A DNA stretch of 63,989 nt, counting the filler, from Stramenopiles sp. TOSAG23-6 (taxonomy: Eukaryota), in NCBI GenBank assembly GCA_900128565.1. It is 3 parts of 3 records of this genome, joined end to end, with 100 filler letters (N's around TTAATTAATTAA, not from the genome) between each part and the next. Parts side by side here need not be neighbours in the genome. Positions count along the whole stretch, not along the records: positions 24,408 to 48,362 come from LT636007.1; 2 more parts are not named here. One strand, 5' to 3'. Positions 1,223 through 48,462 of the stretch are shown piece after piece. The translations under genes and the position numbers were made by a program. The notes beneath the pieces were generated by a model. That model was given only the letters and a program-made list of their open reading frames with translations. It did no database searches and was not told the origin of the DNA. The number at the start of each line of letters is the position of its first letter. Positions within the stretch are counted from its first letter, which is position 1.

Positions 1223-1363
1223 TGTATGTACGAAATATCCTAAAAGAAGAAAAACTATTGTGATGATAATTACTCGTGCAATCACAAAGCACCTTTATTT
1301 TAATTCCAAGAGTTNAATGATATATATATATAAAATTAGTTGAATATAAGTGTATCTCAAGCA

Positions 1364-4333: not shown

Positions 4334-4722
4334 GTTCCTTTAACAGGAAAAGTATAAATTGAAGGAGAAAATTTGAGCAACAACAAATTCTGCAGCGATT
4401 TGATTCGAAATTCGAATTGCGGTTTTTGAGATTGACAGCGGTGCAAAAAAAGGGTACCTAGTAGCTAGGGTTAGGGTCAAAATAATAATAGTATTACATC
4501 TCGAGATCTGATCTGATCAGACAGTTACACTTGTTTGACACTTTACCTCTTCTATTATTATTACCTCTCATTGCTAAAAGATAGCAACAAGTGAATTGGA
4601 GAAGCGCATAAATCCCGTCGCGTTAGATCTTCATGAATACAAAAAAAATATAATAGAAGTAGCCGTTTATTAGTGGCAATGTATTTGTGGGATTTGGTGT
4701 AGCTTGCTGACAAGCACTGAAA

Positions 4723-16645: not shown

Positions 16646-17691
16646 TTAACTCATTCGGACTCGTTCTTGACACACTGCAATATACCTCAAATTCATTCCA
16701 GATCCAGAGGACGAATTAGACCAAAATTTTATACATTGACGCAACGCATCTAGCCCTTCTAATTTTCTATCTTGAATACTATCGCGACTAAGTTCAATCA
16801 TATTTTTTGGACTTTTTTCTAAAGTTGCGATACCTGCAACAAGCAATACATCAATTAAGTGTGTATTTTGGAAAAATATTTCAAAAAAAAAAAAACTAAA
16901 ATTTGTTAGGTACAAAATTTCGTACGAAAAAAAAATCAAATTTGAAAAAAAATAAAACATACGTTTCTTTCGAGTTGATTCCGTGTAATGCATATTAATA
17001 ATCTCATCGACCCACTCCATATAATCTGAGACAGATATCGGATGCTCTATTGTACGTGTGGTTTGGTCTTCAAAATTCAATGATGTTACGCATTGCGATA
17101 CTTCATTCTCCATATCGATTGCAATATGGATTGTGAAAAAATATTTTTTTTTTACAAAAAACTAAAAAATTCGTTAGGTACAAAATTTACTATGAAAAAA
17201 ATCTAGCTAAAAATTAAATTCTGAAAACGTACATCTTGAAGATGTTTTGTAAGAGTTTTGATAGCTTTCATGTTTTTCTCTAGTAACACTCGATGTTTAT
17301 ATAGTAGGCGTTCCTTAAGACCATCAAAAAAATGCAGTGGTGTTGAAATCCCGTTCTCTTTGGTAAATGTATCATAGATACAAGGAACCCGACTTGCAAC
17401 ATTTATCAGAGATGATATAGCGTTTTCACACCGATGCTCCGTATTTAACCATTCTTCATGGAATTTCATGATGCGTACGAATATACGATTCCAGAATTTT
17501 AGAGCAGATATAATACTGCGAGAAGCTTTTGTGGGGCTAATCTGATTTTCTATATTTATTAGAGATAAATTATTGTCTTTGGTTTTTGCCGCATCACGTC
17601 TCTCTTTTTCTAAAACTCTAGCCTTTTCTCGAGCTTCCCTATTTCGTAGGAGCTTACGTTGGTTTGCAGTATATCCATGATTTCCTTCCAT
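16646..17691 (-). CDS. C1orf109/AIRIM-like protein; 3 exons
   Basis: FDGLKERLLYK and SVSDYMEWVDEI..HYTESTRKKHLI resemble C1orf109 motifs FPDLKERLRRK and SVADMLEWLQDI (recognised from memory). Confidence 0.65.
16861..16962 (-). mobile_element. Introner-like intron GT-AC (102 nt, in frame, no stop)
   Basis: AC|GTATGT...GTACCTAAC...AAAATACAC|AC. Confidence 0.8.
17126..17232 (-). mobile_element. Introner-like intron GT-AT (107 nt)
   Basis: GAT|GTACGT...GTACCTAAC...CACAATCCAT|ATT restores HLQD-IAIDME. Confidence 0.85.
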
Positions 17692-17987: not shown

Positions 17988-20900
17988 ATGAAAAAGAACA
18001 AAGGTGGGAATCGCCCCAGGGGGTTCATCTCATATGATCCTTTTGCTGATATGGCTGGCAGAAGCGGCTCTACAAAAGTAAAAGAGGTTCAAGGAGAAAT
18101 TTCTGATCATGTGAAAGCTTTGACCGATCCAGTTATTGAAGTTGGAACACCTCCAGAACCTCCGACAAAAGGTTCAGAAATTCAATCGAATCCCAATTCG
18201 AAACCTGAATCAAATCAGGAAGACATTACTCCTAACCAAAATAGTCAAACAAGTCAAAAAGTGCCTCAGTATAATATAGAAACTGTAGGTGAAGAAGACT
18301 TTGAAGATGTCTTTGACTCGGATGATTCAACAAGGTCAATGACACCCAGAGGATCACCAATCCCACGAGGCAGACGAAATAGAAAACTGTTTTATGAAGG
18401 CCGAGAACTTGTACAATTAGAACTAAAAGCTGCAGAACAGACACAAGTTTTGAAAGAGAAACGGCGAATTTATGAAGAAAAACAAAAAAACAATTCTCTT
18501 GCGCTTGTACGTTTTATATGAATTTCTAATTTAATTATTTTTTTCATACGAAATTTCGTACCTAACAATTTTTTTAAGATTTTTGTTGAAATATTTTTTC
18601 ACAATACTTCATCGTCGATACGTGCAACGCTTAAAAGAAATTGACCAAGAGGATAAAGAATCCATTAGAGCCCAAATAGAAAATACAAAACTACTTACTC
18701 AAAAAAGGGAACTCCAATTAGCTCAAAGAAAAGTCGATTTATTACACGAAGAAAATCTTCGTAAGCATGTACGTTTTCGAAGTTGAATTTCGAATTTATT
18801 TTTTTTTCGTAAATTGTTTTTGTATCTAACGATTTTTTTTCTTTACTAAAAAACAATTTCACAATGCATGACCGTGATATTGAGCTCGAGAGGGTAGTTG
18901 CAAGAAAACTTCAATTAGAAGAAATTCAGGAACGGAAAAGGCAAATGTATGCTTTATTTTTTTTCAATTTCGATTTGTTTTCGTACTAAATTTTGTACCT
19001 AACGATTTTTCTTTTGAAATATTTTTTCAAAGTACATATCGGAGCAAGTTCGATTACGCAAGCTACTTTTAGAAGAAGTTCAAGAAGAGAGAGGTCGAAG
19101 GGCAAATGCGAAAGCAAACCGTTTGCAGGAAGTTCTTGCAAAAGCAGAATATGTGCGTTTCCTTCATGCATTTTAAATTGTTTTTTCGTACTACATTTTG
19201 TACCTAACGAATTGTTTTAAACCAAACAAAAAAAAATATTTTTTCGCAATACATCTTCAAAAGGAAATTAACTCTGGCGCTTTTGATGCCAAAGACAGAG
19301 AAACCTTCGCTGCTGAGTTTCTGAAAGAAGATACAGATAATGATAATGTGTTTCATTTAACCGAAGAAATTTCTGGAGCACGACATAAAGAGTTTATGAA
19401 GCGGCAAAGACAGAATGAGGAAGAAATGACCCAGCTAACAAATAAACGTGAAATTTTAGATGTTGAACGTGCAAAGTTATTGGATAAAAAACAAAAATTA
19501 GTATCAATACAAAACAAAGGAATTGAGTTTATGGCAGATATTGAAAGAGGGCTGAAATCAGAGTCTGATTTATCTCCAAGACCATTGAATGATCCCAAAT
19601 CAATCGATGAAGTTGAGATGAAAGATAACAAAACTGTGAAAGAATTTGCTGAAGACCTGAGAACAAATCGACCTTATAGACAAAAGAAAATACAATCTTT
19701 GAAAGCAGACCTTTTTGTTTTAGAAGCTGAACGTATTCGAGCAAAACCGAAGTTGCATATGCTTCCAGAATACGATGGAAGACTCGGAATTTCTTCTTAT
19801 CCACCAGAAAGTCAAGAAATGGTAAAATGGCTTCGTGAGATAACTGTGGAGCTTTGTGATGAGATAATGAATGCATTTTATCTTCGAGAAATAACATTTG
19901 AAAATGTTGAAAAAGAGCGAATCCTTTATGAAGAAAGTAAAGCTCTATTAGTAAAGCGTTATTCGGCACGAGCTACTGATCGTGCTATTGATGAAATCAC
20001 CGCGACTGCGGTTTTGGATGTTGTCCAACAGCAAATTCGAGAAGTGCATAAAGAATTTTCGTATTTGTATGAAGTTGCAACACAGATGAGTAATCAGCTT
20101 CTTCTGAACACAGTACTGGAACGGCGATCTGTCACGAGCATACTACATATAGAAAATACAAAGGACAACACAAAAATGTCAGATTTTACTAAAGCATGGA
20201 AAGCTAGAATATTAGAATTCTGTAGAAAACAACAAGTAAAGAATCGTGATAAGCGTGATCAATCAGGAGAAAAAGTTCGCCTTGATCCTCCTTACCAAAA
20301 TTCTCCTCTAATTCCGTCAAATAAAGGAAAAGCTGTTGTGCTTCTTGTTGCAGAAAAGGGTAAAAAGGCTCTTGAAAAAGAAGAGAAACCAGAGAAAAAA
20401 GGTAGAAGTTTCTTTATGAAACGAACTGGAGATTCAGATTCTTCTGAAGATTCTGACGATGAGAACAATGCATTAATTAAGGAGAAAGATGTCACTTACT
20501 CGAAACTCCACGACTCGGATACCATAAAAGTTTGGGTTCCTAATTATGAATCTGAAAAGGGCTTAAATAATACCAGTAAAGAAGCTGCACACAAAGAAGA
20601 AAAAAAATTCTTCAAGAATGTGCATTACACGTCAGCTTCATTTTCAACACCTAAGGAATATGGTGCTGTAACATGTTGCTCATTAGGATATCACAGACAG
20701 ACCCTTCTTGCTGTTGGTACCGCATCTGGTGTTGTTCTTATATATCGCGTTAGTTTGCCACCTGCAAGACTGCTACATGTTCTCGAACATAAAAGAGTTA
20801 TTCCTAAAAAGAAGACATTAGATATGAAAACTTTTGATCCATCGATGGTTCACCGCAAGAAGAAGAAAAAAGCAAAAAAGTGTGCAGCGGATAGTATAAG

Positions 20901-22426
20901 TTGGAGTTTCGATAGTATGCAATTATCAGTAGTACATGTTGATGGGCAAGTGAGAGTATGGTCACTGGCCCATCACTCTACAGAGAAAGCTGAAACAAAA
21001 GAAGAGATGCAAAATGCTCATGGTGTAGTGGATGATGCTGAGGATGTCAAACCCCAGATACACTCGTACCCATCGATAGAATTATCAAATATTGACTTTC
21101 AACGCTGCGCGGTAAATAATAATATCGGTTTAAATAAAAAAGGCAAAAAGACTAAAAAGTCAAAACAAAAAGAGAAAGAGGAACTCGTATCTTTAGAGCC
21201 GATATTATCATGTTTTCACCCTGCAGCGACTTTTCTAGGTTTCCAGACGTCAATAATGTGTGCGGTACGACATGGACATGTAATAAAATGGAATGGTTTA
21301 GATGAAACTGAAACTACGCCTCTTTTATTCAATAATATCTCACCATATGAGCCACTCTACAGAGGTGAAGAAGCGAATGACATTAAAGAACGGCTCGCAC
21401 AGGAAGTCAAACGGGAATTCTTTCAGTGTCATAGGAATACAATTATTTTAATGAATTTTTTGGAAAATACAACATCTACAATGGTCACTGTTGACAAAGC
21501 TGGACTAATTTGTGTATGGAATTATAATACCGATAGCTTTTCTGGATACGGATGGTTTGTACCTTTTAAACAATATCAATTAATTTTACCTATAACAGAT
21601 TTGAATACAGATATTAAAAAAAGCAAGACAAAAAGGAATAAAAAAGGAAAACAAAAGATTGATATTTTATCTGCAAGATTAACAATATCAGGAAATGAAA
21701 TTATTATGATAGCCAAGACTCCACAATCCCATGGAGGCAACAGAATACTTATTTTTGATCCTGTGAAAGGACAATTTTTGAGGTCACAGATAAAGCTTTC
21801 ATCATCCATCAATTCTCATTATTTTACAGTTTCACCAGTGCTTGATGCCACTTGTTCAGACTATGTATATTTATATAACAAGGGCAAATATTTGGTTTAT
21901 TCACTGGCCACAATGAAAAAGGTAAAAGAAGTAACGTTGTTAGCTGATACAGGAAAAGAAAGGCAGACAACACAGCCATATATTACACGAAATCATAGTC
22001 AAATAGTCATTTGTGTAAAAGGTACAACAGACGTCAAAATCAGAACAATTGTCGATACAAATTCATTTGAGAACCCACCAACAATATTTTCTAAATTCGA
22101 GCCCCAGAAAGATAAAAAGGAGGGATATTGTATGTTATCATTTTCCCACACTTTTTTAAAAATTTATTTATTTTGTACCAAATATTGTATCTAACAAATT
22201 TCAAACGTAAAACATATTTCTTCACATTACTTCTAGTTTTGAATCCGATGATGAAGAATATCGTGAAAACTTAAAATTTAGACCGCGCTTTCACTCAGCT
22301 TCTTCCGAATATAGAGTCCGTCGCTTTATGTATGACATCTCAATTTTTAACGTAAAGAAAGAAATTAGAAATATAGTGTCTGATATTGTCGCTGAAGCAA
22401 CAGAGAGAGCAAAAACACTTTGGTAA
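17988..22426 (+). CDS. Large coiled-coil + WD40-repeat protein; 6 exons
   Basis: One continuous frame after removing 5 family introns; WD-like segments LAVGTASGVVLIY, VHVDGQVRVWSL, VTVDKAGLICVWNY. Confidence 0.75.
18507..18609 (+). mobile_element. Introner-like intron GT-TT (103 nt)
   Basis: CTT|GTACGT...GTACCTAAC...CACAATACTT|CAT; an in-frame CAT 3 nt further is an alternative end. Confidence 0.8.
18769..18869 (+). mobile_element. Introner-like intron GT-AT (101 nt)
   Basis: CAT|GTACGT...TCTAAC...CACAATGCAT|GAC. Confidence 0.8.
18947..19037 (+). mobile_element. Introner-like intron GT-AT (91 nt)
   Basis: AT|GTATGC...GTACCTAAC...AAAGTACAT|A. Confidence 0.85.
19153..19254 (+). mobile_element. 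Introner-like intron GT-AT (102 nt)
   Basis: TAT|GTGCGT...GTACCTAAC...GCAATACAT|CTT. Confidence 0.85.
22130..22232 (+). mobile_element. Introner-like intron GT-TT (103 nt)
   Basis: ATT|GTATGT...TCTAAC...CACATTACTT|CT; the nearby AG (22235-22236) gives a frameshift and early stop. Confidence 0.75.
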
Positions 22427-22429
22427 ATC

Positions 22430-22509
22430 ATTCGTTTTTTTTGTTAGGTACAAAGTTTACTACGAAAAACAAATAAATTTGAAATTCATATATTTGCCAA
22501 ATTGTATAC
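22430..22509 (-). mobile_element. Orphan or degenerate family copy between convergent genes
   Basis: Minus strand reads GTATAC...CGTAGTAAACTTTGTACCTAAC; no clear 3' terminus. Confidence 0.55.
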
Positions 22510-24307: not shown

Positions 24308-24407
24308 NNNNNNNNNNNNNNNNNNNNNNNNNNNNNNNNNNNNNNNNNNNNTTAATTAATTAANNNNNNNNNNNNNNNNNNNNNNNNNNNNNNNNNNNNN
24401 NNNNNNN
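24308..24407. other. Artificial contig linker N-TTAATTAATTAA-N
   Basis: 100-nt N run containing a six-frame stop cassette. Confidence 0.95.
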
Positions 24408-24462
24408 CGTACGAAATTTCGTACCTAACGATTTTTTTTTGAAATATTTTTCCAAAATACAT
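24408..24462 (+). mobile_element. 3' half of introner-like intron (acceptor AT) at contig start
   Basis: CGTACGAAATTTCGTACCTAAC...GAAATATTTTTCCAAAATACAT|CAT. Confidence 0.85.
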
Positions 24463-27400
24463 CATATACAAAGGTGGAAAGCTTTGCGATTAACAAATCT
24501 AAAGTCATCTATTGAGTCTCACGCACGTGCACAGATCTCATACCATCAAAGTTTAAAGAAACAATTTGAATGTTTATTAAATGATATGGAAAATAAAAAT
24601 TTTGGAGGATCCAAAAATGACCAAGCTAAACCTTTGATGCAAAATTCAATAGCTCATTGTAAGCAATATACTTCTACTGATACTGTATTCTCTGAAACTG
24701 TTACAGAGAAAGACATACCACAAAAATGTATGTCAAATGATAGGCTCAACCAAAAATTGGAACTGTCATATAACCCTAACCCTAACCCTATAGAACACAT
24801 TTCATCGAATGACAATGGACAAAATCCATCGAATCCATCGAATTCGATTACTAATAAATCTAGTGATTTTGTTGCTGTTTTTGCCATTTGTGTGGTCGAA
24901 GTGAGGCATATTTTTCGTGAAATAAGGAACCCATATATTGTTATTTCAATGGGTGGAATTGAGCATCGCGCATCATGTACAAGAATGTATGTTTTTATGA
25001 TTCAATTCATTTTTTTTTAAATTTAGTATGAAATTTTGTACCTAACAAAAAGTTAATTGTTTTTGAAATATGTTTTATCAATATATGTTTAATGATCGAG
25101 CAGAATTTGGAGAAACATTTTGTTTTACTATTTATTCAGATACTGAGATGTGTAGAGTTGCGTTACATGTATGTTCTATTTTTTTTTCAAATTCGATTTT
25201 TTTGCGTACGAAATTTTGTACCTAACGATTTTTTTTTTTTGTGAAATATTTTTCCAAAAGATATGATGAAAGCAAAGGATCAATAGGTTCAATTCTTATT
25301 AGTCAAAAAGATTTGAATAATCACAAAACGACATGTGGCGAATGGTGGTGGATTTTCCATGGTTTATATAGTGGTGAAGTTAGAATACGTTCTCATATGA
25401 ACTTTGGTAGAGCTACGCTAAATAAAAAAGATGGTCATTTATCATTACATGATTTTGGTAAATTGTCAGTAGAAGGAAATGATCGAAATTCGGGTGCACG
25501 AAATCTGAGAAACAAAGTCAGTAGTGATAGTAGTAGACGATACACTGGTATAAATTCTTTACATGTTTATAATCAACAAAATGCAGGGTTATTACCAGCT
25601 AATGGAACTTTTCTCCATTCTCCTTCGTATTTAAAGAATAATAGAAATGTTATTTCAGGATGGATGGATAATAATAATATTGATGATAATATCGATAGAA
25701 GTAGTGAAAGTTCAAGTAATAGAAAATCAAATATTGATAGAATAGAAGAGAACCATAACCCTCATATTATCATAGGCAGTCCATATAATAGAAAATTAAC
25801 TGAAGGGAACTGTGATAAAAATGACTCTATATATGATAATTTAGGATTTCAAATTCCTCCCCACTGTCTCGGACTTGCTCATTTTATAGGCCTTGAGCAA
25901 TGTAGAGAAATTCAACAATGTTCCCGATGGATTCAATTGAGCGGTGGCTATGAAAATGGCGTTTTTTCTATGCTCGAGCAACACGCAACACCTGTTGATG
26001 CATCTCAATTCGCATCACCTGTAGATGTATCCCGACCTTGCCGTGTACTCATGTATGTTTTTTTTTTTTTCAATTTCTAAATGTTTTTTTTTTGGTTTTC
26101 GTACGAAATTTCGTACCTAACAAAAAAATCAAAAAAAAAATATTTTTTATACTACATATCGTCGGAATTAGGAGCTTTATTGTTTGGTGGAATTCCAACT
26201 ACATTTCGATCGGAGGCCTATATGTGTCTTAGTGGCGCTGCTGCCATGAAATTACGACAACCAAAAGGTTATTATCAACAGCTTTATGACGGATCGATTG
26301 ATCCAATCGTTCGCAGGCAAATAGAGGACGATCTTGTGAGAACATTTGCTAAACAGCAAACTCGTATTAATGTGGTGAAAATCGATACAACTATAAAAAG
26401 AGTATCGAGTGAAAGCATTTTACCTATTACAAAAAACGATAGTACTGTTCATTTGAATATTTCAGATGAAACCACAACTAAACAGGAACCAGAGGCTTTA
26501 GCTGCCCTTCGTCGTATTTTATTGGCACATTCATTCAGGAATTCTGTTGTTGGATACTGTCAAAGTTTGAATCATGTTGCGGGTTTTTTACTTTGTCTTG
26601 GTACTATTCATGAAGAATGTGTTTTCTGGATACTTTGCGCTGTGACAGAACGTTTATGTTGTGATTATTACGTACCTTCAATGTCTGGTTTACATCGGGA
26701 TCTTCGAGTTCTTCGCGATTTAATGCAGAAACGGCAACCAGAATTAATGAGACATATGGATAGATTAGGTGTACCACTTGAAATGTTAGCATCTGGTTCA
26801 TTACTGAGTCACTTTGTGTTACATCTTCCGACCCATACTGTGCTTCGTATGTTGGACATAGTTTTATGGCGTGGATCTCCCATGCTTCTTTTGACGGTTT
26901 TGGCGTTGATGCAAATGTCGCGTATGGATCTGCTTTCTGCACGTACTGCTGGGGAAGTCGCAACACGATGGAAATCATGCCAGGAGCGTTGTTACGATGC
27001 AGAAGGTTTAGTATCTCGCATTCGAGCAGAATGGATTGAACTTGGTGAAGGGACAATAGAAGAATTGCAAGCGAAACATGCAGCCGCGGCAAGATCTGAA
27101 GCTGAAGCATCACTACATAGTGCAGCTTTACGCCGTTTTGTTGGTGATGACACAACTTCAGGTGATGGCTTACGACAGAGTGTGCTTGACCAAGCGCATT
27201 TCACACAATTATATGGACGTTTTGTTGAAGCTGCCGCAGCACCCGCAGGAAGATCTGCTGATCATCGTAGGTTAGATACATCTAGCTTTCGCGCATTGAT
27301 GTTGCGAACTTTCTTTGGTCTTCCTGTGAATAGCAGCCGGAGAACACTTGATGCTCTTTTTGAAGCTTTTGATGCCAATGGCGATGGAGAGTTGGATTTA

Positions 27401-28026
27401 CAAGAATTTATTACTGGAATGGGTATGATCAGTCCAACTGCAACAATTGAAGAAAAACTTCGTTTTTGTTTTAATTGTTATGACGCAGAGAAATCAGGGC
27501 AAATAGAAAAGCAATCACTGGCTGGTCTGTTACATACTATTGTTGCTGTTGCTATGCTTATGCTTGGACATCAAAATACACTATCAAAAGATGTAGTTGC
27601 AACGTTACTTGATCATGTATGTTTTATTTTTTTTCAAATTCGATTTTTTTTCATACGAAATTTTGTACCTAACGATTTGTTTTGAAATATTTTTCCAAAA
27701 TACATTGTCCGAGTTCTTCGCTGTCTTTTGTAGAGTTCTGTGAATATTTATACGCACAACCTCTTGTATCTGAGTGGTTGAATCTTCAGCAGCGTTTGAA
27801 TGACTCAGGCATTATTATTAATTCTGGTATGAAAGAGATGAAAAATATGTCTGGGACAATATCCAGTAATACGACGAATAATCCAATTGACGAATATGAG
27901 CAAATAGAATATAATAATTATGGAAATACTGAAATAAATGAAAATGAACATCATAAATTTGGGGATTCGTATGCTGAAAAAATGTGGATAGACTGGCCAC
28001 ATCATGATGGACGAAGTGGGCATTAA
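24463..28026 (+). CDS. Rab-GAP (TBC domain) protein with a C2-like domain and EF-hands; 5'-partial, at least 5 exons
   Basis: GGIPTTFRSEAY, QIEDDLVRTF, VGYCQSLN (TBC fingers); DANGDGELDLQEF EF-hand; C2-like NPYIVI..EFGETF..VALHD built across family introns. Confidence 0.88.
24987..25086 (+). mobile_element. Introner-like intron GT-AT (100 nt)
   Basis: AT|GTATGT...GTACCTAAC...TCAATATAT|G. Confidence 0.85.
25169..25264 (+). mobile_element. Introner-like intron GT-AT (96 nt)
   Basis: CAT|GTATGT...GTACCTAAC...CAAAAGATAT|GAT; the AG 4 nt upstream is out of frame. Confidence 0.85.
26053..26157 (+). mobile_element. Introner-like intron GT-AT (105 nt)
   Basis: AT|GTATGT...GTACGAAATTTCGTACCTAAC...ACTACAT|A. 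Confidence 0.85.
27617..27705 (+). mobile_element. Introner-like intron GT-AT (89 nt)
   Basis: CAT|GTATGT...GTACCTAAC...CCAAAATACAT|TGT. Confidence 0.88.
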
Positions 28027-28153
28027 TTGAGGATTTATAAAATGAGGTTTGATTTGGAATGTTTCGAATTTTTTGATGGTAATGAATTGAATTTGTTTTT
28101 GATTGACAAAATTTTTTATGACTTTTTAATTTTAAATGTAGATAAAACTTTTA

Positions 28154-29358
28154 TTATTTAGCTTGGTCTAATTGTTTTTGAGAAGGTAGCTTCGGTACCG
28201 GGGGAATTGGTCTATTTCCCATCAAGAATGATGGACGTCTTGGAACAGGAGGTGAAAGGCATGTATAGTGTTTTTTTATTAGAAGAAAACCCGTTAGGTA
28301 CAAAATTTCGTACGAAAAAAAATTTCAATTTGAAAGAAAAATCAATTTTGAAAACGTACGAAATGGTGGGTTACGAATTGTTGCAGGAAAAGCACAATTT
28401 TTAAGATCTATTCGAGAAACCTTTATCGCTCCAACGAGTCGTTCCGGCAACTCTTCCATACTTTGTGATTCTATCAAATATCCAAGTTCTAATTCCAATT
28501 TTTTCGCACAACCGGATTTGTCTTGTGAAAAAATATTGTTTTTTTGGTTAAAAAAAATGTAAGGTACAAAATTTTCATACAAAAAAAAAGAAATGTCTAA
28601 TGTAAGTGGACAACATACACGAGTCCTAAAATTTTTCTAGCAATCTGAGAGGAACAAACATCACAATCCACTTCAAAATAATTAGGACCACGAAAATATG
28701 CACATTTTAATTTTTTACCAATAATTGCAGGACGTTGGACACCCAGACTTTGAAGCGTTTTTTTCATTAACATTGGTGCTGAAATGACTTTACAAACAAA
28801 TTTCATACGGTTATTACGATATTCATTTGTTCCATTTAAAATGGAATCCAACAACTTTTCGAATTGAGGATCAGAATCCTTATCTAGCGTTTTTTCAAAT
28901 AGGTTAACAACATTTACATGCTTCTTGCCAAAATTGATTTGCCAACAAAAGACAAAAAAGAATGACTCGGCGTGACTTTTGATAAAATCATGAAGTTCAA
29001 GAATTCTATGAGACACATGCTGTAGAGATTTATCACCCACATCAAGCACAGAAAACCCACATGGGCGAAACGCACAAGGTTCAGGCTCTACTTTCCTTTT
29101 ATCTATAAGATATGTAGGACCTCGTAATAACCAGCCGCCACCAGCTCTTCCAGGTGTGATTGGTGCAGCTGGAGACATTGTGTTTTTACGAATACAGTCG
29201 GTTCCGATTTCCTCAGCATCTGGATTAAATGTAGTAATATTTCCAGGTAACCAAACATCATAAGCAGTCTTTCGTACTGGTGCTGTACGTAAGGGACCTG
29301 CAACTGGTGTTTTCATTCCACTGGAATTAGTAAATGAGTTTGTAAAGGATTTGAACAT
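28154..29358 (-). CDS. EDR2 C-terminal (DUF1336) domain protein; 3 exons
   Basis: LRGPTYLIDKRK, YRNNRMKF, YFRGPNYFEVDCDV.SS..AR, LIESQ..EELPERLVGA motifs. Confidence 0.85.
28261..28359 (-). mobile_element. Introner-like intron GT-AT (99 nt)
   Basis: C|GTACGT...GTACCTAAC...ACTATACAT|GC. Confidence 0.75.
28518..28618 (-). mobile_element. Introner-like intron GT-AA (101 nt)
   Basis: GT|GTATGT...GTACCTTAC...CACAAGACAA|A restores LGLV-SGCAKKL. Confidence 0.7.
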
Positions 29359-29624
29359 GTCAGTGGTGTATACTTCCGTGGTGTGAAACTAAATACTCTA
29401 TTCAATCAAGTATATCGTAAAAATATATTACAATAGACCTAAAATGCAACGAGTGTATAATTAATTACAGTATTTTAGTTATATAATGTCGTGATTTAGC
29501 TTTCTTTTGGTGATTGACATCTGGAATTGTAGTAGCTACGTATCCAAAATCTCTCGAAAACCGAAACCAAACGAACGAATTTGCTACTTGTAATGACACT
29601 CTTCTTCTATCTACAATCATCAAT

Positions 29625-29685
29625 TTTTTTTTTTAAGTACAAAATTTCGTACAAAAAAAAAACACGAAATAAAAAAATATTTCAA
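29625..29685 (-). mobile_element. Orphan remnant of the family core in an intergenic region
   Basis: Minus strand reads TTTTGTACGAAATTTTGTACTTAA. Confidence 0.5.
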
Positions 29686-29769
29686 TAGTTAGTGTTTCCT
29701 TTCTTCGAATCAAATCTTCATCTCAAAGGAAGATCCTAATCTAGGTACCTAAAAAAAGAGACTCGAACA

Positions 29770-31358
29770 ATGTTACGTACTACATTAGCAGTATCCAAAT
29801 CGACACATATCTTGTCTCGTATAGCATTTAGATTTCCCCAACCTTGTATAGGTCTTCCATTTCAACGTCATTTTCATTCCACAACTTCAGTGAACAAGCA
29901 AGTTGCGTTTACTCTACCCGACGTCGGTGAAGGCATCGCAGAAGTTGAAGTTTTACAGTGGTATATCAAGGAAGGCGACGAAATTTCCCAATTTGACAAA
30001 ATATGTGAAGTGCAGAGTGATAAAGCTACGTTAGATATAACGAGTCGTTTTGATGGTACGGTTGCCAGTCTTTCATATGGTGTTGGTGACATGGCACAAA
30101 CCGGAAGTACATTGTTCATGATTGACGTTGAGGGGGGTTCAGACGATATTGAATCAGACGATATTGAATCTACGCCGCCCCCACCTAAAGATAGTTCACC
30201 AAACTCTTCTTCTACACCTAATGATACATCAATACATCGTGAGAAATCACTTCCTTACAACAATTCCGATGGAAAAGTTCTGGCGACACCTGCAGTACGC
30301 AGGCTTACTAAAGAAAATGAATTAGACATAAGTCAAATAGTAGGTACAGGTAAAGATGGTCGTATTTTAAAAAGTGATGTTCTTGAGTATATGAATAGTT
30401 CAAATAGTGATTCACAAATGTATGTGTCGTCACCGCCTGTGTTTTTAACAAATCAAGAGGATAAAGTAGTTCTAATTAAAGGCGTACAACGTGCTATGCT
30501 TGCAAAAATGAATGAAGCTCTTAAAATTCCACATTTTGGTTACAACGACGAATTTTCAATGACGGCACTTTCTACTGTGAGAAATGATTTACAAAAAAGT
30601 GTTGGAGATAATCGTGGTATCAAAATTACTTCAATGCCTATTCTCATGAAAGCAGCATCTCTCGCGTTACATCAGTTTCCTGTCATAAATGCCAGTATAA
30701 GTGATGATGAAACGTCAATCAAGCATCATGCAGCACATAATATAGCTTTTGCAATGGATGGACCATCAGGTTTGATTGTGCCTGTGATTTCACACGTGAA
30801 TCAAATGTCAATTGTGGAAATTGCTGAGGAAATGACACGTATCATGTACGTCATTTTCATCATTTTTCAATTTTTTTTTTGGGTAGGAAATTTCGTAATT
30901 AACAAAAATTTTAAATTGTTTTGAAATATTTTCACAAAATACATAGCAATCGGTCAAAAAGGAAAATTGAGTAATGCTGAACTTACAGGAGGAACTTTTA
31001 CACTTTCGAATATTGGTAGTATTGGTGGAACATATGCATCGCCTATTATATTACCTCCTCAAGTTGCTATAGGTGCACTTGGAAAAGTTCAAAAACTTCC
31101 TCGATTTGGAGAAGATGGTACGTGCATATGAATTTCTAATTTAATTTTTTTTCATACTAAATTTTGTACTTAACGATTTTTTTTACGGAAAAAAAATATA
31201 TGTTTCATAATACATGTGAAGTCGAGGCAGTAGAAATTATGAATGTTAGCTGGTCGGCTGATCACAGGGTTATTGATGGGGCTACAATGGCAAGGTTTTC
31301 TAATGCAATGAAGAGTCATGTGGAACATCCAATGTCAATGCTTTCAAACTTACGATAA
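29770..31358 (+). CDS. DBT: Branched-chain 2-oxoacid dehydrogenase E2 (dihydrolipoyl transacylase), mitochondrial; 3 exons
   Basis: Lipoyl domain EVQSDKA, E3-binding [18 protein letters not shown], catalytic [10 protein letters not shown] and [12 protein letters not shown]. Confidence 0.93.
30846..30944 (+). mobile_element. Introner-like intron GT-AT (99 nt)
   Basis: AT|GTACGT...CACAAAATACAT|A; the AG 2 nt downstream causes a frameshift. Confidence 0.9.
31118..31215 (+). mobile_element. Introner-like intron GT-AT (98 nt)
   Basis: G|GTACGT...GTACTTAAC...TAATACAT|GT restores [20 protein letters not shown]. Confidence 0.9.
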
Positions 31359-31407
31359 CTGTACAATTTTATTTTGAAATTAAAAATTATTTTGTGTTGT
31401 CATATTT

Positions 31408-34400
31408 CTACTTTTTATTTGCTAATATTCCTTTAAGCATGCCACCTTTAACAATACCACGAAGTTTTCTTGAAGGCTTTTTCTCTTGTGATGAAATTTC
31501 ACTGAGCTTTTGAAAAGCTGCGAACCAAAGTTTTGATATTTCCAGAGAAGTTGCTTCTAAATCTAGAGTTCTCAGAGGAGTATGTAGAGATAAACAATTC
31601 GCACTATCTGTCTCTTTACCATGACTACGTGTAAATACCTTTGAAGCATGACCATCAGTAATATCCGAGATGTGAGATAATTTGATTCCACTATCTGATT
31701 TAAGCTGAGAAGCAGTTTTTGCACGCATTTTTGTTACTTTTCCGACTTTACACCATCGAACAAAACCATCACTTTCATCTTTTGTAAAATCAACCCAAAC
31801 AAATCTTTGATTAGGAGCACCTCGACGTCCATGTTTCCTAAATTCCGCACCTTGAATAAGCATCATTTTCATTTCTTCCAAGTTTTGTTCTTTTATTTGT
31901 TTGTGGCGATGTTCACTAAATTCTTTTTGATTGGTGTTATCGGTAACTGACTCTTTTATTTCTTCTTCCGTTTTTTCTTCAGAATATTTTTCTGTTTCAA
32001 TGCCCATTTTGTTTTCTTCAAGACTTTCAGTTTTATTATCTACATTAAAAACAGATGATTCTCGAAAGTTTTCTATTTCAGCATCTTTAGTGTGCAGAGC
32101 TACAAATTCTTTGAATAATTGCGACTCTTTATTTCCCCAAATACCATCTACTTTTAAATTTGCTCCATGCGCGTTGAGCATTTTCTGAAGAGCTTGAATG
32201 ACAGAGTTATCTAATTCATTGCCATTTATTGGTAGTGGAGAATGTTCAGCGCTATTCTTATTTAAATACTGTTTTAGTTTAATTATGGTTTCCGCGCCTA
32301 CTATACCATCTACCTTGAGGGATTTATGTCCGACAATCTCTTTATTCAAAAATTCTTGGAGGCTTTTCCGTGATACAATATTTCCAAAATCAATTTTTGA
32401 TATGAAATTTGCTGCATTCTTTGAATGTTTTCTTTTTGACAAATCTACAAATGATGATTGTTCAGATGATTCATCTGTTATATTTGTACTTCCAAGTTCT
32501 CCACTATTAACATTGTCTTTGTCTTCGAGAGAATAATCATCGGAAGTATTACTTGCATTTTTATCAGTAATTGATTTTGATTGTGATTTATTATTACTAT
32601 TGTTATGTTGTTCATTCCTCTTGTCGTTTGAGTAATTGTTACCTTTTTCACTCCTCTTATCGTTTGAGGGGTGATGTAATTCAGACAACGTTTTCCCTTG
32701 AGATTGAGTGTTAGGTTGCTCTCGACTAGCAAAAAGTTTTCGTTTTGATGGTGATGTGTCAGAAATACTACGATAATGACCTCTTTCTCTTCGCGAGATA
32801 TTAGACTCTTTACTAGATGTACCAGACAACTCACTAGGTAGACTTCTTCTATGTGAACGTTTTTTGTTTCCAAGTAAATGATCATATTCAAATTCTTTAA
32901 GATGTCTATGACTACGTGGAAATAATGCTAATTGCCGCTGCAACTCCATCAAAATATTTGCACCCATACCTGCACATTCATGTTTAGTAAAAAAATATGG
33001 TTTGAATTTGAAATTTGTTAGGTACATAATTTTCTATGAAAAAAAAATAATTTTGAAATTCATGATGAAAACATACATGAGCCTTTTGAAATGAACCATT
33101 ATATGACCTAAATGGTGTCTCATGAAACGGTTTAGACTTTCTCGTCATATTTTTAGTATGACTTTTAGTATGACGTTTATCAGATGTCGTACTTTTTTGT
33201 TTTCTTTTTGTTTTTTTTTCAACACTTTTTCCGACACTTGAAATTACTAATTTACTTGGACTTACAGTGTAATCTATGTAATGCTTATGGCCATGCAATC
33301 GATCAGAATGATTACTTTGATCGTGAATATGACTTGTTTCTTTCATAAAGATATAAGTACCCGTCAAAGGATCGCGTCCATGTTTTATAAAGAAATATTT
33401 TAGAAAAAAAATTGTTAGGTACAATTTTTTTTTCTGAAAAAAACAATTAATTTGAAATGCATTATGAAAACGTACACTATCTTCTCGCCATATTTTCATA
33501 AGTTCTAATCCAAATTTTTTAGCTGCTCGAAGTAATACAGCCGGGTTTGTCGCAGCAGCATACCTCGTTCTAAATCCAGCAACGTCTTCAGGGCGAGCTA
33601 AAACTCTACCTATATGTTGTAGCAAACCTTTAAGCATATCTACTGGGCGAGCTTGATTAAAAGAATCAGCGAATGCGCCAAGAGCAAATCGAGCAATCGC
33701 ATCTAAGAAATGACTGAAATGCATATGGGAGTTGTAACTTACACGAACTTCACTATTTTCGAAAGAACTTGTTTTAAATTGCTTTTGTTGCGCATCATCA
33801 TTTTGACCAATTTTGTTTATATTATTCGATGTTTGTTCCTCACTTGTTTGATTTTCACATGCACGTGTTGGTTTTTGCATTCCACCACAACAACAAGCAG
33901 CTAAATAACAATCTCCATGTGGTGTGAAGATATATGCCAGATTCGAAATTCGTTAAGTACAACAAACTAAATAATTTGAATGAAGCAAAAAGAAAATTAA
34001 TTTTAAATTAATAATGAAAACAAACGTATTCAATCATTGGAATTTGTAAATTAGAAAAATCCAAATCTTGAGTAAGTTGAAGGAAATCTTGATAGCTAAA
34101 TATACCAAGATTTTGTCTATTTGAAGATCTTTGATTTCCATGATCATTTTTAGATCGTTTAGAATGCCAAACTTCGGTGCCTAAACCCGAATTCCAAGAA
34201 GACCAACCACCCTTGTATGAATTAACAGTCCGGTCTCTTTTTGGTCCTATATTTCGATCTCTATGTAATTGTTGTTGCTTTGTTGGTGCATAAAAATTAA
34301 AAATTTGCCATAAAGGATCTCGAAATCGATGCATGAGAGCCAAAACAGCTGGATCTCTCAACTGGGTAGTTTGAGTCGCCCATTTTGCAACATTCCAACG

Positions 34401-35915
34401 TTGAGCTCGGGGAAGTATTCTGTCAACTAAAAGTTCAAGAACAATTTGTTGAGGTCCATTTGGCAATTGAACTCTTTTTGGTAGCATGCCTAAAGAAACC
34501 CTAACAAGAGCATTTACAAAATCATCAAAGGAGAGCCTTCGACTACCTTTACCTTTTGTGATTCCACCTACTATGCGTCTTCGACCTCGACCATCACCTG
34601 AGTCTTTGTGTCTTCCTCGTGATTCTGCATAAAATACAACATTTGCTTCAGCTTCTTCAATTAATCCTCGATTTCGTGCATCATCTGGATGACAATTTCT
34701 ACCTAGTAAGCCACAGTCAAATAAAAGTTTACGCCAACATCGACTATGAAGTCGTTGTAATGATAGTGGATCACCAGTTACACAATAATATGTGAATACC
34801 AACCATATATTGTGAAAAAATATTTTACATTCAAATGTTTTGTTAGGTACAAAATTTGGTACGAAATATTTTTTACATTCAATTTTGAAAACGTACATAA
34901 TTCTCCTTCAAGGTTTAGTTGCTGTTTAGAATTTGGTGTGTGAATACTTAAAGATGGTGGTGAAACAGATTCTGAATAATTCTCATCCCAATTTTGAAGC
35001 GGGTGTGATGGAGGTGGAGACATCTGAGGAGAGCTTATACGTGTACTATTTTTACTCAAAGATTTCGGAGATTTTCTCTTCACTTTTGTTTTTGTATCTC
35101 CATCGTCTATTACACTATTATCAGCACGTTTCTTTTTCAATTCTTTGATAATTACCTTCTGATTTTCTTCATCCTCTGTACTGTATAAAGATGAAATGTC
35201 TTTTTCCGGTGATGATTGCGTATCTACATGTAAAAGAGACGTTTTAATTCCTCTCGGTGTTAGGATAAGTAAAGAGTTATCGTGTCTGGGTTGTGAAAGT
35301 ATTGTGAAAAATATTTTACATTCGAAATTCGTTAGGTACAAAGTTTGGTTCAAAAAAATAAATTTGGAATTCATTACGAAAACATACAAGAACTCGAATC
35401 ACAAAAGCGCTTTCAGGCCAAACGCAGTTATCTTGGTCTAGAAGGACGTAAGTTGTTGCCTGCGAGGGAGAATGTGGATCATTACTAACAGTAACGCCAT
35501 CTTTAACACACCAGTATCGCATAGCGTCGCGTCGAAGATCACTGAAAGTATACGAGCTCGGAATCCAACTAGAAAACTCAGTTCGAGTTACAGCATGTAT
35601 TACCGTGACTTTTGATGTTTCTGTAGTACTACCTAACGGCCGAAGACGTATACATGGCAGAAAAGCATATGCTTTCATACTGTCTTCTTGTTTGCGTGAT
35701 ACAGGCACGCCATCATCTAATAAAAAGGAATAATGCCTCGGAAGGCCGTCTAAGTCCCGGTGTAAAAGACGTCGAATTTCAGAAAGACGAGTATCATCGT
35801 ACGTTGTCACAAAACCTATATAACCCATATTTTCTATTGCTACTCGAAGGGTTGCCGCCATAGATGGTGCACTACTAGAACCAAATAGTCCCGAGGCTGG
35901 AATTGACTCCTGCAT
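31408..35915 (-). CDS. Multidomain protein: ubiquitin-like N-terminus, EF-hand-like helical region, two peptidoglycan-binding-like repeats, C-terminal PLC-type PH domain; 6 exons
   Basis: One continuous frame after removing 5 family introns; LKVDGIVG and LKVDGIWG motifs; GAEFRKHGRRGAP..RFVW...CLSL..PLRTLDLEA......WF (PH). Confidence 0.75.
32980..33076 (-). mobile_element. Introner-like intron GT-AT (97 nt)
   Basis: CAT|GTATGT...GTACCTAAC...ACTAAACAT|GAA. Confidence 0.85.
33380..33475 (-). mobile_element. Introner-like intron GT-AT (96 nt, in frame, no stop)
   Basis: AGT|GTACGT...GTACCTAAC...ATAAAACAT|GGA. Confidence 0.8.
33917..34025 (-). mobile_element. Diverged introner-like intron GT-AT (~109 nt)
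   Basis: TAC|GTTTGT...GTACTTAAC...CACCACAT|GGA. Confidence 0.65.
34805..34896 (-). mobile_element. Introner-like intron GT-AT (92 nt)
   Basis: AT|GTACGT...GTACCTAAC...CACAATATAT|GG restores EGEL-WLVFTYYC. Confidence 0.85.
35297..35387 (-). mobile_element. Introner-like intron GT-TT (91 nt)
   Basis: CTT|GTATGT...GTACCTAAC...CACAATACTT|TCA. Confidence 0.85.
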
Positions 35916-36141
35916 TATGAAAAGTTACCTCGAGCAAGATAAGCTTTTAGGAATTCAATTCAAAAACTGAAGTCTGAAGAGGAACGGGATCGAGGTACCG
36001 GACGTATCCGGGATCCGGGTTTGCTTTTTGTAACTGTCGGCGTTTGCGAGTCTTTGTTTGAACGTCCAACATAAATTTTTACCTTATAGTCATTATGATA
36101 ATGTGCATAATATAATGCTAAAAACAAAATAGAATAAAGGT

Positions 36142-39100
36142 ATGAGACAGTGGACCCCCCCCCAAACACCTCGAGAAAAAGAGTCTCTTCCAGCTATACA
36201 AGAGTCTTTGGATACCTGCACTAATTCTTTGAAAAGGAATAGCCCAACAGAATCTACAGACTGGGAGATATGCGATTGGTACGGCGATACTTCAAGACTG
36301 AATAACTTTCATAGCAGTTCTATTTATTCAAAAAAAAAAAAAATGAGCGAGAATTTAAAAATACACACGACACCACTGAGACGTTCATTTACATCTAGAC
36401 CTCAAACAGCACTACCAAATCGGTCAAAGTATATTTCATCTTCTGGTGGTCGACAATTATTTAGACAACCAAAAATACAATCATTATCAAAACCAAAAAT
36501 GAACAAGAAAAAACATTCTAAAGATGCTTTGATGTATCAAAATAATTCAATGGTAGTTAAAGATTTTCGCCTTCGACAATCTGCTATGCGACAATATGAA
36601 AAAAACATGAAAAGTATTGAAAAAAAAATGTCGGTCTTTTTTACAAGGTTATACACACAGCGACCTCACATTGAAGTAGAAGCAATGCAATTAATGATTG
36701 ACTGCATTATTGAACCCTTTGTTACAAAGTTAAAAGATTCTACAACAAAAGAACTGGCGTCAATTAAACTTCACTTGGGTAGAATAGAAAAAGAACGAAT
36801 AAATCTTTTACACACTGAATGTAAAGAAAAGTTTGATGCTATAAAATTGATAGAATTAAATACGTTAAAGGCAGATTTATTGGATAAAATGAAAAATAAA
36901 GAAGCAATTGCCACGAAACGAGGTGTTCGGATAGGTAAAAAGCACATGCGCCGTAAGCTATCCAGAGCAAGAAAACTTCTAAGGAAAACAAGAGCTAAAT
37001 TACGAAGAAAACGTCANAAGTTACGTAAAGAATTTCGCTATAAAGAAGAATGTATAGTTGATGAATCTTCATTATCGTCCTCCGAATTATCTCAAGACAC
37101 ATCAGGGGATAATAGTAATACATCTATGTTTTCGTGTTCTTCGTCAGAACTTTCAAACTCAGATAGCAGAAGTAGCAATAGTGAAGAGGCAGAAGAAACA
37201 GCATACACGTTTTTGGAGATTGAAATGCTGGCTCATAGATTATTCTTAAATATGGATATTAACGGAAGTAAATGTTTGAAACATTTTGAAATTAAAATGT
37301 TGATTGAAAAATTATTACAAAGTGTACACACGAATTCGAAATTACAGCATTCTTTGTCAGGAAAAGAATTTGAAATGATTGTTCAGAAATTACAAGATTT
37401 CCTTTCACTATATATGAGAAGTAATTATCCAGCTACATCAAATAGCAATAGTATAGACAATGATAAAATGTCATTTATTCAGTTTATTCAATGGTTCAAG
37501 CTTGCTTGGACTAATGTCATATTGGGAGAAATAAAAGATGAAAAAAGAAGTCGACGAAATCGAAGGCGAAAGTGTAGAAGAAAACGACGAAAACAACAAA
37601 AGCAACATCGATGGAAACAACGTGTATACCGTGGAGAAGCCATTATGAATATGCGACATAACATCCAAGGGAAAAAAAAACAAACTGTAGTAAATGATTC
37701 TGAAACTTCTAACAATTATTTGAGTAAATTAAACCCAGGTGCACCTCTATTAAAAAATGATGAAAACTGGATAGGAAATCTTGTTCGAGTAGCACCACTA
37801 AAGCGTTTCTTTGACTTACCAATGCAACGATGGGAAGAAATTGCTGCATCAGATGACACGTTGCAAATACGAAATAATAAAAGCGAATATGTAGAAAACA
37901 ATAAGATGGATACAGAACTAATTATGAAAGTTTTAAACATTACGCCAGGTGATAAGTCTCGGAAAAAAATTCAACTAGCGATGCCATATCTTAAGTATGC
38001 TAGTTGCCTTGGTCAAATTGGTAAAGACAGAACCAATTCAAAAGTTGTAAACAATTGCTGGAACAATGCTAAAAAGCAGGTTGATACAATAGTAAACAAT
38101 GGAAATATCGAATGCAATGTAAAGCCTAAAAACCTACTACAAAATTCTGTAATGATTGGAAATTTAAGTAATTTAAACAAACTCTCTTTGGGAGACGAAA
38201 TGAAACATATTTCAGAATCTGATAGATTACTATGTAGTGGTAATTCATATTCTGCATGGCCTTGCGAACTCATAGAACACATAAATTCTTCTGATATAAT
38301 CCGTAATAATACTGATAAAGATATAATACCCCCATGTATTTCTATACTAGGTCCTCCAGCATCAGGGAAATCATATTGTTGTAAGCTTTTGGCTCGCTCC
38401 GGCTGGAAGATTATAAATGTACACAATCTAATAAATGAAACTAAGAATCCTGCTTTTAGCAATCTTGACGCGCTTGAGTGTTTGCCTTCGGAAATGAATC
38501 AACTTTTACGAAAAAAAATAAATCAAATTATGGAACTTGGTGATACGAAAAAAGGTATAATTATAGAAGGATACCCAACAAATATGCGCCAATGCTTTGC
38601 ATTTGAGAATTACGTGACTCCAATTTCATTGATAATTTCACTCCAGATACCTGAGAAAGTTGCACAAGAAAGACTAAAAGATCCGAACTATATTGATCTA
38701 TGTAACGAATACAATACGGGTACAAGTGTGCGTATAAATTATTTTCAAAAACTTACGTCACCACTGATAAAAAAATTTCAACATTATAGATTAGTTTCAG
38801 AAATCAACACAGATTGCACATCCACTGAACTTCAAGCTTTGCTTGCTAAGGTTGTAAAACCCGTAGTTAGCAAGTGGACCCAACAAAGGGTATTATTATA
38901 TGGAGATGATGATCATATTGATTTTTTAGCAACATCTTATTTGAGACTAGAACCTCAATCAATTAAAGAGCAGTCGAATATTGCACTTGAAGAAGCCGGA
39001 TTCGGAAGATCTAACCAGCGTTTGCTCCACTGGACAAAAGAAGATGTCTTCATCTGGTTAGAAAAACAAGGACTATTTGGTGTTGCTGATGTGTTTTATA

Positions 39101-40839: not shown

Positions 40840-40870
40840 TTTCTTTATTTTCTTTCTACTTTTATAACCA

Positions 40871-40902
40871 TATTTTTTTTCATACGAAATTTCGTACCTA
40901 AT
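40871..40902 (+). mobile_element. Truncated orphan family core downstream of the gamma-CA stop
   Basis: TTTTTTCATACGAAATTTCGTACCTAA without family termini. Confidence 0.6.
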
Positions 40903-48301: not shown

Positions 48302-48362
48302 GTATCTTTTATTTTTTTTCAAATTCGATTTTTTTTTCGTACGAAATTTTGTACCTAACGAA
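48302..48362 (+). mobile_element. 5' half of introner-like intron at contig end
   Basis: CAT|GTATCT...CGTACGAAATTTTGTACCTAAC followed by Ns. Confidence 0.85.
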
Positions 48363-48462
48363 NNNNNNNNNNNNNNNNNNNNNNNNNNNNNNNNNNNNNN
48401 NNNNNNTTAATTAATTAANNNNNNNNNNNNNNNNNNNNNNNNNNNNNNNNNNNNNNNNNNNN
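48363..48462. other. Artificial contig linker N-TTAATTAATTAA-N
   Basis: Same 100-nt cassette as at 24308. Confidence 0.95.

Follow-up and report, generated by a model that had tools for sequence, protein, structure and literature searches.

We analysed a stretch of 63,989 nucleotides (nt) from Stramenopiles sp. TOSAG23-6 (assembly GCA_900128565.1), referred to below as the window, and in particular a gene within it for the E2 subunit of the branched-chain 2-oxoacid dehydrogenase (BCKDH), DBT. Both introns of this gene begin with GT, end with AT and are copies of one stereotyped element of 89-121 nt that recurs throughout the window. The favoured explanation, which we regard as probable, is an introner family whose 3' splice site is defined by position and is independent of AG, with two copies splitting an intact and expressed nuclear DBT gene of an uncultured marine stramenopile. 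An introner is a mobile element, resembling a miniature inverted-repeat transposable element (MITE), that works as an intron. A wider form of this explanation, that the one family supplies almost every intron in the 64 kb and that the spliceosome cuts a fixed 2 nt past a ..CAMAATAC block without AG, is put forward tentatively, as something that may or may not hold.

The DBT gene and its two introns

Joining 29770-30845, 30945-31117 and 31216-31358 gives an open reading frame (ORF) of 463 amino acids (aa) that ends in TAA. The features of the gene are:

29770-30845, + strand: DBT exon 1, with its ATG at 29770; 358 codons plus 2 nt; supported by homologs, Pfam and RNA-library contigs
30846-30944, + strand: DBT intron 1; 99 nt, GTACGT...ATACAT; family copy (nhmmer E 6e-11)
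30894-30903, + strand: branch-site-like motif of intron 1, CGTAATTAAC (family consensus TGTACCTAAC)
30926-30942, + strand: conserved 3' block of intron 1, ATATTTTCACAAAATAC; 15/17 to the consensus, with the intron end 2 nt beyond
30945-31117, + strand: DBT exon 2; 173 nt; part of the catalytic domain, from alignment and Pfam
31118-31215, + strand: DBT intron 2; 98 nt, GTACGT...ATACAT; family copy (nhmmer E 8e-12)
31165-31174, + strand: branch-site-like motif of intron 2, TGTACTTAAC, from the sequence
31216-31358, + strand: DBT exon 3, with the SADHRVIDG catalytic motif and the TAA stop at 31356-31358; alignment and Pfam

Exon 1 encodes a presequence-like N-terminus, the lipoyl domain (Biotin_lipoyl PF00364, residues 47-118, E 7e-19), the E3-binding domain (E3_binding PF02817, residues 170-205, E 6e-15) and the first half of the catalytic domain. 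The catalytic domain is whole only once both introns are taken out: positions 2-130, 136-186 and 191-231 of the 2-oxoacid_dh profile (PF00198) fall on exons 1, 2 and 3, respectively, the profile crosses from exon 1 to exon 2 without a gap, and SADHRVIDG of exon 3 (the DHRxxDG motif) lines up with the orthologs. The closest named homologs in the protein search are DBT or 2-oxoisovalerate dehydrogenase E2 proteins with 40-50% identity. These similarities support a DBT-type E2 (BCKDH E2), where the choice of a branched-chain E2 over that of PDH or OGDH follows the source names of the best named matches, at the same 40-50% identity.

A sequence-only reading had proposed these two introns as the cleanest proof case for GT-AT junctions in a conserved enzyme. 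Removal of 30846-30944 and 31118-31215 does produce the junction peptides that it gave, both of which are found in the 463-aa ORF, and the colinearity with BCKDH E2 that it noted is borne out by alignment: orthologs that extend over this region match the model gap-free at either junction (of 20, one, P0010, fails to align there). It was also correct that both introns carry in-frame stops (TGA at 30922-30924 and, on read-through, TGA at 31129-31131), that the AG located 2 nt past the first junction (30945-30946) does not share the frame of the 30846 donor, and that an AT-AC reading of intron 2, AT(31115)-AC(31213), causes a frameshift.

Alignment of the spliced protein to DBT orthologues, which the same reading had suggested as a check, was carried out with 118 orthologs of 400-620 residues drawn from 120 protein-search matches. 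The ortholog spacing was matched at both junctions. The model and 110/118 orthologs have 39 residues between the conserved anchors across junction 1 (40 in two, with six unmeasured); for junction 2 the model and 88/118 orthologs have 21, with longer spacings in 16, shorter in none, and 14 unmeasured. On a profile built from the orthologs, the GT..AT model scored 607.2 bits.

The exact cut sites can be read in more than one way at the sequence level. Intron 1 lies in the context atcat/GTACGTC...AAAATACAT/agcaatc (slashes mark the boundaries). Because CAT both precedes and ends this intron, four readings result in an identical mRNA: the GT..AT reading, 30844-30942 (AT..AC), 30845-30943 (TG..CA) and 30843-30941 (CA..TA). 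Intron 2, in the context gatg/GTACGTGC...ATAATACAT/gtgaag, has unmatched flanks (the exon ends in TG and the intron in AT), and its only equivalent readings are TA..TG (+1) and AC..GT (+2). GT..AT is the sole boundary pair common to the two introns and has the best spacing and profile score, so that the earlier choice of GT..CAT stands and its boundaries are, by sequence comparison, the best-supported ones. What had been overlooked was the set of equivalent readings of intron 1, the presence of in-frame GT-AG alternatives (weighed below) and the fact that a single repeated element accounts for both introns.

Three further observations concern the gene. In the linker at 30139, one RNA contig (run X6) and one DNA contig (run X2), both from other samples, have a 15-nt in-frame deletion relative to the window, a population polymorphism in the length of this E2 linker. 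Queries with exon 1 and exon 2 against a large protein collection, seeking junction-crossing fragments derived from transcripts, found no near-identical DBT protein in two length ranges that exclude 101-195 residues; the best matches were 50% and 71-72% identical. Finally, a scan of metagenome contigs with exon 1 returned one distant ortholog, L001 (1-2006), a GC-rich DBT gene with 44% identity. Where the window has junction 1, L001 carries no intron, which adds to the evidence for colinearity; the segments that interrupt it are longer, quite unlike those here, and rich in GGGTTA/CCCTAA-like repeats.

The intron family and its 3' ends

The window contains 22 full copies of the element and 35 nhmmer matches, roughly one per 2 kb. 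Every one of the 22 full copies is sense-oriented and sits between pieces of an ORF, across many different ORFs. The layout is constant: GTAYGT; ~40 variable, T-rich bases; a core; ~20 variable bases; the block ATATTTTTYCAMAATAC; and 2 nt. GTAYGT starts 21/22 copies and the branch motif TACCTAAC is exact in 17/22, these two being the best-conserved blocks of the family. In the DBT introns the branch-site-like motifs read TAATTAAC and TACTTAAC. The motif is found ~47-59 nt downstream of the 5' splice site and 33-58 nt before the intron 3' end. The core (..CGTACGAAATTTYGTACCTAAC) overlaps a perfect palindrome, GTACGAAATTTCGTAC, in some copies; the T-rich 3' block ends in ..CAMAATAC, and positions -8 to -6 of the introns are C/A-A-A. 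Terminal inverted repeats amount to just GTAT/ATAC plus interrupted inner blocks and the central palindrome. A scan of the window with Rfam gave no match, and a scan of viral contigs with the 27-nt element core gave 0 matches.

Judged against U2-type introns, the donor is of the expected kind (GTACGT in both DBT introns) and, going by the motif, the predicted branch point 33-58 nt from the 3' end is too. The terminal AG is not: both DBT introns end in AT, and AG is found in 2/22 copies. The family also shows introner traits, with many similar copies at unrelated positions and an apparent 2-nt target-site duplication (see below).

The 3' boundary of each copy was set blind, 2 nt past the stretch that best fits the conserved 17-mer, and we then asked if any frame was open over 120 nt on either side of the junction. 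The frame was open across the motif-defined boundary in 21/22 copies, the exception running into the stop codon of its gene. With the boundary moved by 1 or 2 nt either way, the frame was open in just 1-2/22 copies. By comparison, the first AG at least 8 nt past the branch motif was in phase with the GTAYGT donor in 6/22 copies, about the chance rate, and two of those six sit at the motif-defined boundary. The terminal dinucleotides across the 22 copies were AT (14), TT (3), AG (2), CT (1), AA (1) and AC (1). The AT ends noted earlier for DBT are supported for both of its introns but do not constitute a rule, AT being only the commonest 3' end (14/22). Nor can AT alone be the signal, because every copy has 2-6 extra AT dinucleotides between the branch motif and the intron end. 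Intron ends seem to be set by position and not by an AG signal, with position relative to the conserved 3' block as the likely reference.

In 15/22 copies the last 2 nt of the intron are the same as the last 2 nt of the upstream exon (permutation mean 7.6; 0/100,000 permutations reach 15). The match covers the unusual ends, with TT/TT three times, AC/AC and AG/AG. The repeated dinucleotide looks like a 2-nt target-site duplication. C occupies exon position -3 in 11/22 copies and the next exon begins with G in 9/22, which suggests a palindromic target, C/AT/G. Of the seven mismatched copies, four (DBT intron 2 included) end in AT, a hint that AT may be favoured in its own right.

The other 20 full copies are listed by position, with the ends of each intron and the evidence for its boundaries:

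14829-14926, - strand: family intron GT..AT; motif and frame test
15053-15151, - strand: family intron GT..AG; exon end AG
16861-16962, - strand: family intron GT..AC; exon end AC
17126-17232, - strand: family intron GT..AT; motif and frame test
18507-18609, + strand: family intron GT..TT; exon end TT
18769-18869, + strand: family intron GT..AT; motif and frame test
18947-19037, + strand: family intron GT..AT; ambiguous frame test, flanking exon short
22130-22232, + strand: family intron GT..TT; exon end TT
24987-25086, + strand: family intron GT..AT; frame test ambiguous
25169-25264, + strand: family intron GT..AT; ambiguous frame test; out-of-phase AG 4 nt upstream
26053-26157, + strand: family intron GT..AT; RNA contig piece from 26155
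27617-27705, + strand: family intron GT..AT; CAT at both ends; RNA contig piece from 27703
28261-28359, - strand: family intron GT..AT in a gene with an EDR2_C domain; exon end TC, no direct repeat; the 5' boundary is an RNA contig piece end
28518-28618, - strand: family intron GT..AA in the EDR2_C-domain gene; exon end GT; RNA contig piece end, Pfam continuity and frame
32980-33076, - strand: family intron GT..AT; motif and frame test
33380-33475, - strand: family intron GT..AT; exon end GT
34805-34896, - strand: family intron GT..AT; motif and frame test
35297-35387, - strand: family intron GT..TT; exon end TT
63493-63592, + strand: family intron GT..CT; motif and frame test
63729-63849, + strand: family intron GT..AG; the longest copy, 121 nt

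Partial copies lie just outside ORFs at three places, and may be decayed intergenic insertions: 40860-40902 (+), downstream of a gamma-carbonic-anhydrase-like gene; 22439-22490 (-); and

29630-29664, - strand: partial family core upstream of the DBT start (nhmmer E 0.001)

A 31-nt match to the palindromic core at 48027-48057 (-) falls inside a + strand ORF, 47075-48358 (nhmmer E 2.8e-4), and could be an exonised remnant or chance.

The repeat breaks assemblies. The stretches 24308-24407 and 48363-48462 (N44 + TTAATTAATTAA + N44) adjoin copies of the family core, and DNA contigs of an independent metagenome run, X2, break inside family copies. In that run the bins 24420-25253, 27339-27755 and 28173-28589, which hold family introns, have a summed contig depth of ~8,500-11,700, compared to ~7 on unique exons; in the RNA runs the family-intron bins reach ~1,000-3,000. 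Seawater samples contain the element, or relatives of it, at a very high copy number, and it is abundant in RNA libraries too.

RNA contigs and competing explanations

The window is eukaryotic, with a G+C content of about 34%, and is found in seawater metagenomes and metatranscriptomes. Contigs from three RNA runs (X6, X7 and X10, which are poly(A) metatranscriptomes) and from the DNA run X2 were placed on 24420-36900. Exon 1 of DBT carries RNA-library contigs from all three RNA runs (X6 records 20 and 21; X7 record 28; X10 records 3 and 4). At other copies, RNA contig pieces end exactly at four predicted boundaries, the GT..AA intron included. X10 record 2 (276 nt) is placed only on 28359-28517, with 90 and 27 further letters that lie elsewhere. 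The placed piece is the exon between introns 28518-28618 and 28261-28359 plus one G, and this extra G is common to the intron start and the next exon. The GT..AA junction in the same gene is exactly colinear with Pfam EDR2_C: profile position 174 corresponds to residue 255 on the upstream side and profile position 178 to residue 2 on the downstream side, and three residues separate them. In run X6, the first placed base of record 19 is 27703 and that of record 17 is 26155; both lie 3 nt, the length of the CAT repeat, before the predicted exon start. Contigs of the X2 DNA run, which contains these loci, run into the same introns instead (records 10-12, among the intron-entering contigs of records 9-16).

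The mechanism that we propose builds on what was shown: the exact segments removed from DBT, at the protein level; the existence of the family; its phase rule and direct repeats; and, in other copies, the four boundaries at RNA contig ends. The DBT locus would be a nuclear gene that encodes the mitochondrial E2 of branched-chain 2-oxoacid dehydrogenase, with two introner copies inserted into its catalytic domain in the sense orientation. The element would spread as DNA, inserting with a 2-nt target-site duplication and a preference for C/AT/G, and would bring its own strong 5' splice site, GTAYGT, and a yeast-like branch site, TACCTAAC. Splicing would start normally, with the GTAYGT donor, branching at the TAAC adenosine and the spliceosome as the presumed cutter. 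The exons would then be ligated at a site that lies 2 nt beyond the ..AATAC block and 33-58 nt after the branch motif, regardless of what those two bases are. Excision at the RNA level, from the first G of the element to the end of the downstream duplicate, would restore the pre-insertion coding sequence exactly. Pairing of the ends, GUA(U)/(A)UAC, is possible; recognition of the conserved 3' block by some factor is just as conceivable.

A number of results weigh against this explanation. In-frame GT-AG alternatives exist for both DBT introns: GT30839-AG30946 for intron 1, which shortens the protein by 3 residues, and GT31118-AG31221 for intron 2, which shortens it by 2 residues. At junction 2 the model is one residue longer than the general Pfam profile. 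The frame is also left open by shifts of 3 or 6 nt, so that ORF phase fixes the 3' site only modulo 3. No RNA contig crosses either DBT junction among the 15 of 352 joints listed, mostly cross-joins between intron repeats. The intron repeats are over-represented relative to exons about equally in the RNA libraries and the DNA run, and because of this equal excess the RNA libraries possibly contain DNA or pre-mRNA; intron-less alleles in the population could in principle give rise to 'spliced' contigs. Lastly, RNA folding of the 22 copies gave energies near those of shuffled sequences (mean z -0.76), with no consistent stable structure. To call DBT a 'proof case' was thus an overstatement, because no visible RNA contig spans its junctions and the GT-AG alternatives exist, although its boundaries are the best supported.

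The first competing explanation is ordinary GT-AG splicing of DBT, with introns 30839-30946 (donor GTATCA) and 31118-31221, and non-AG ends that arise from over-trusted homology. Both introns would be in frame and stop-free, the AG at 30946 is the first past the branch motif, small deletions are tolerable in loops, and at junction 2 the general Pfam profile is equally distant from the +1 model and the -1 alternative. However, the resulting anchor spacings of 36 and 19 occur in 0/112 and 0/104 measured orthologs, respectively. The profile scores decrease by 9-12 bits per junction (595.5 and 598.2 bits for the single-junction alternatives, 586.5 for both), and the 30839 donor is not the GTAYGT of the family. 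Within the family, the first AG is in phase in 6/22 copies compared to 21/22 for the motif-defined end, and the GT..AA intron is backed by RNA contig ends and Pfam continuity. We consider ordinary GT-AG splicing very unlikely.

Cutting two bases upstream, as an AT-AC intron (ATGTAYGT...ATAC), could apply to intron 1 and to the other AT-flanked copies, with a fixed 3' AC and a variable 5' end. The mRNA from intron 1 would be identical, and C is found at position -3 in 17/22 copies and A at -4 in 19/22. Yet this -2 reading fails where the flanking dinucleotides differ. In DBT intron 2 it turns the conserved GEDGEV into GEECEV and lowers the ortholog-profile score by 2.7 bits, to 604.5. It also predicts other ends for the X10 record 2 piece, so that the observed ends, 28359 and 28517, fit the GT-start reading only. 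The U12 consensus ATATCCTT is absent and the distance from branch motif to intron end is 33-58 nt, not 10-15 nt. We give this explanation little credence.

A somewhat better case can be made for excision of the RNA guided by its structure and without the spliceosome, where end pairing (..AU GUAU / AUAC AU..) and an interrupted hairpin would join the exons, and GTAYGT and TACCTAAC would be relics or transposase sites. A mechanism of this kind has been proposed for the nonconventional introns of euglenids and for Amoebophrya introner elements. Variable 3' ends and direct repeats that overlap the boundaries are features shared with the elements of Amoebophrya, as far as the cited part of that study describes them (PMC7789003). 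GTAT/ATAC termini and the central palindrome GTACGAAATTTCGTAC are present, and the ends pair in ~8/22 of the minimum-energy folds, a count taken from predicted structures. Set against this, GTAYGT (21/22) and TACCTAAC (17/22 exact) are the best-conserved parts and have a spacing typical of the spliceosome; the folding energies are hardly unlike those of shuffles; and the copies ending in TT, AC and AA lose the end pairing, yet keep frame. Overall we find structure-guided excision unlikely. Because the predicted folds are weak, a structural ruler for the 3' cut is likewise speculation.

The fourth explanation operates at the DNA level, through excised or polymorphic elements and intron-free alleles, or else supposes that this DBT copy is an unexpressed pseudogene whose intact paralogue lies elsewhere. 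In its favour, some DNA may be present in RNA libraries, and introners are often polymorphic. Against it, the three DBT exons are open and conserved, DHR catalytic motif included; exon 1 carries contigs from three RNA-library runs; contigs of the independent DNA run X2 enter the introns; and host ORFs are intact in 21/22 copies. This is the most improbable of the four, and the DBT gene is very probably functional and spliced as proposed.

Other intron classes fit poorly. U12-type introns comprise AT-AC and rare GT-AT subtypes, and their 3' dinucleotide is variable and chosen largely by the distance from the branch site. The family resembles them in its variable 3' dinucleotide, but has GTAYGT in place of the 5' (A/G)TATCCTT, and its branch motif lies 33-58 nt from the end where the U12 branch site, TCCTTAAC, lies 10-15 nt away. 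A uniform AT-AC reading is ruled out by the copies with mismatched flanks. A euglenid nonconventional intron was rejected on the fixed GTAYGT 5' end, the C/A-A-A at -8 to -6 and the mean fold z of -0.76.

Comparison with known systems and implications

Introners with a target-site duplication, in which the element carries one splice site and the target supplies the other, have been described (bioRxiv 10.1101/2022.06.06.494994), and a later introner survey accepts only AG or AC 3' ends (PMC12130899), to judge by the cited portions of both. The family here is similar to the described introners in being a short, non-autonomous and sense-oriented element with a GT donor, found in many unrelated genes, and in having its 3' end inside the duplicated target, such that mRNA length is unchanged after splicing (bioRxiv 10.1101/2022.06.06.494994). 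It differs in that AG is not required: in place of a co-opted normal 3' splice site there is AT, TT, AC, AA or CT in 20/22 copies. The target-site duplication is 2 nt, compared to 4 nt in the introner examples cited from that source. Surveys that rest on annotated introns probably miss this family.

The introner elements of Amoebophrya are also repeated introns of a marine protist, MITE-like and with short direct repeats that overlap the boundaries (Farhat et al. 2021, PMC7789003). Their non-canonical ends were confirmed by RNA-seq and, in the part of the paper cited here, the authors doubt removal by the ordinary spliceosome. Those elements have no conserved dinucleotide at either end and 8-20-nt, hairpin-forming terminal inverted repeats, whereas here GTAYGT and TACCTAAC are nearly invariant, only the 3' end varies, and the host is a stramenopile and not an alveolate. 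In Fritillaria borealis, introns across the lineage no longer obey the 3' AG rule, although the core spliceosome is conserved (Soo et al. 2026, PMC13326754). Fritillaria additionally loses the 5' GT, with a duplication of U2AF implicated, while GT is kept here. Non-AG ends, a proposed pairing of the ends, and direct repeats flanking an intron of recent origin are features shared with the nonconventional and 'intermediate' introns of euglenids (Milanowski et al. 2016, PMC4770533) and the introns of hemistasiid diplonemids (Thakur et al. 2025, PMC12621601). Those introns have CAG/CTG pairing of +4..+6 with -8..-6 or C/G-rich ends, and no conserved branch motif; in contrast, the family here is AT-rich with yeast-like 5' and branch signals.

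Among the literature systems compared, in those parts of the sources that are cited, we did not find a canonical donor and branch site combined with an AG-free 3' end derived from a duplication. Nor were AG-less introners reported for marine stramenopiles in the literature searched, which did not extend to supplementary tables (lists of introner-bearing genomes).

Two ORFs elsewhere in the window contain no introns. An uninterrupted 737-aa methionyl-tRNA synthetase ORF lies at 52159-54369 (+). A public model, P0154 (616 aa), is 100% identical to it in blocks but omits its first 50 residues as well as four stretches further in. P0154 is labelled as coming from a marine stramenopile lineage, and the next named methionyl-tRNA synthetase matches are from oomycetes at 46-48% identity. 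On these matches we rejected an origin of the window in diplonemids or Amoebophrya, which had been considered in view of their published non-canonical introns. Apparently the public annotation cut spurious introns from a single methionyl-tRNA synthetase exon. At 4711-14568 (+) there is a 3,285-codon ORF with C2-like repeats, long K/E-rich stretches resembling coiled coils, and many single-N positions.

If the wider form of the favoured explanation is true, the family represents a natural and lineage-wide uncoupling of 3' splice-site choice from AG, and would offer a natural system in which to study how the site of the second step is chosen without AG while donor and branch signals stay canonical. 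It would also mean that a mobile element could insert at non-AG sites and still be removed scarlessly, widening the routes from transposon to intron, as any 2-nt target would suffice and not just sites that supply a splice signal. Gene predictors that are bound to GT-AG will mis-model this genome, and for these ocean grazers, an abundant group, functional inventories may contain systematic errors.

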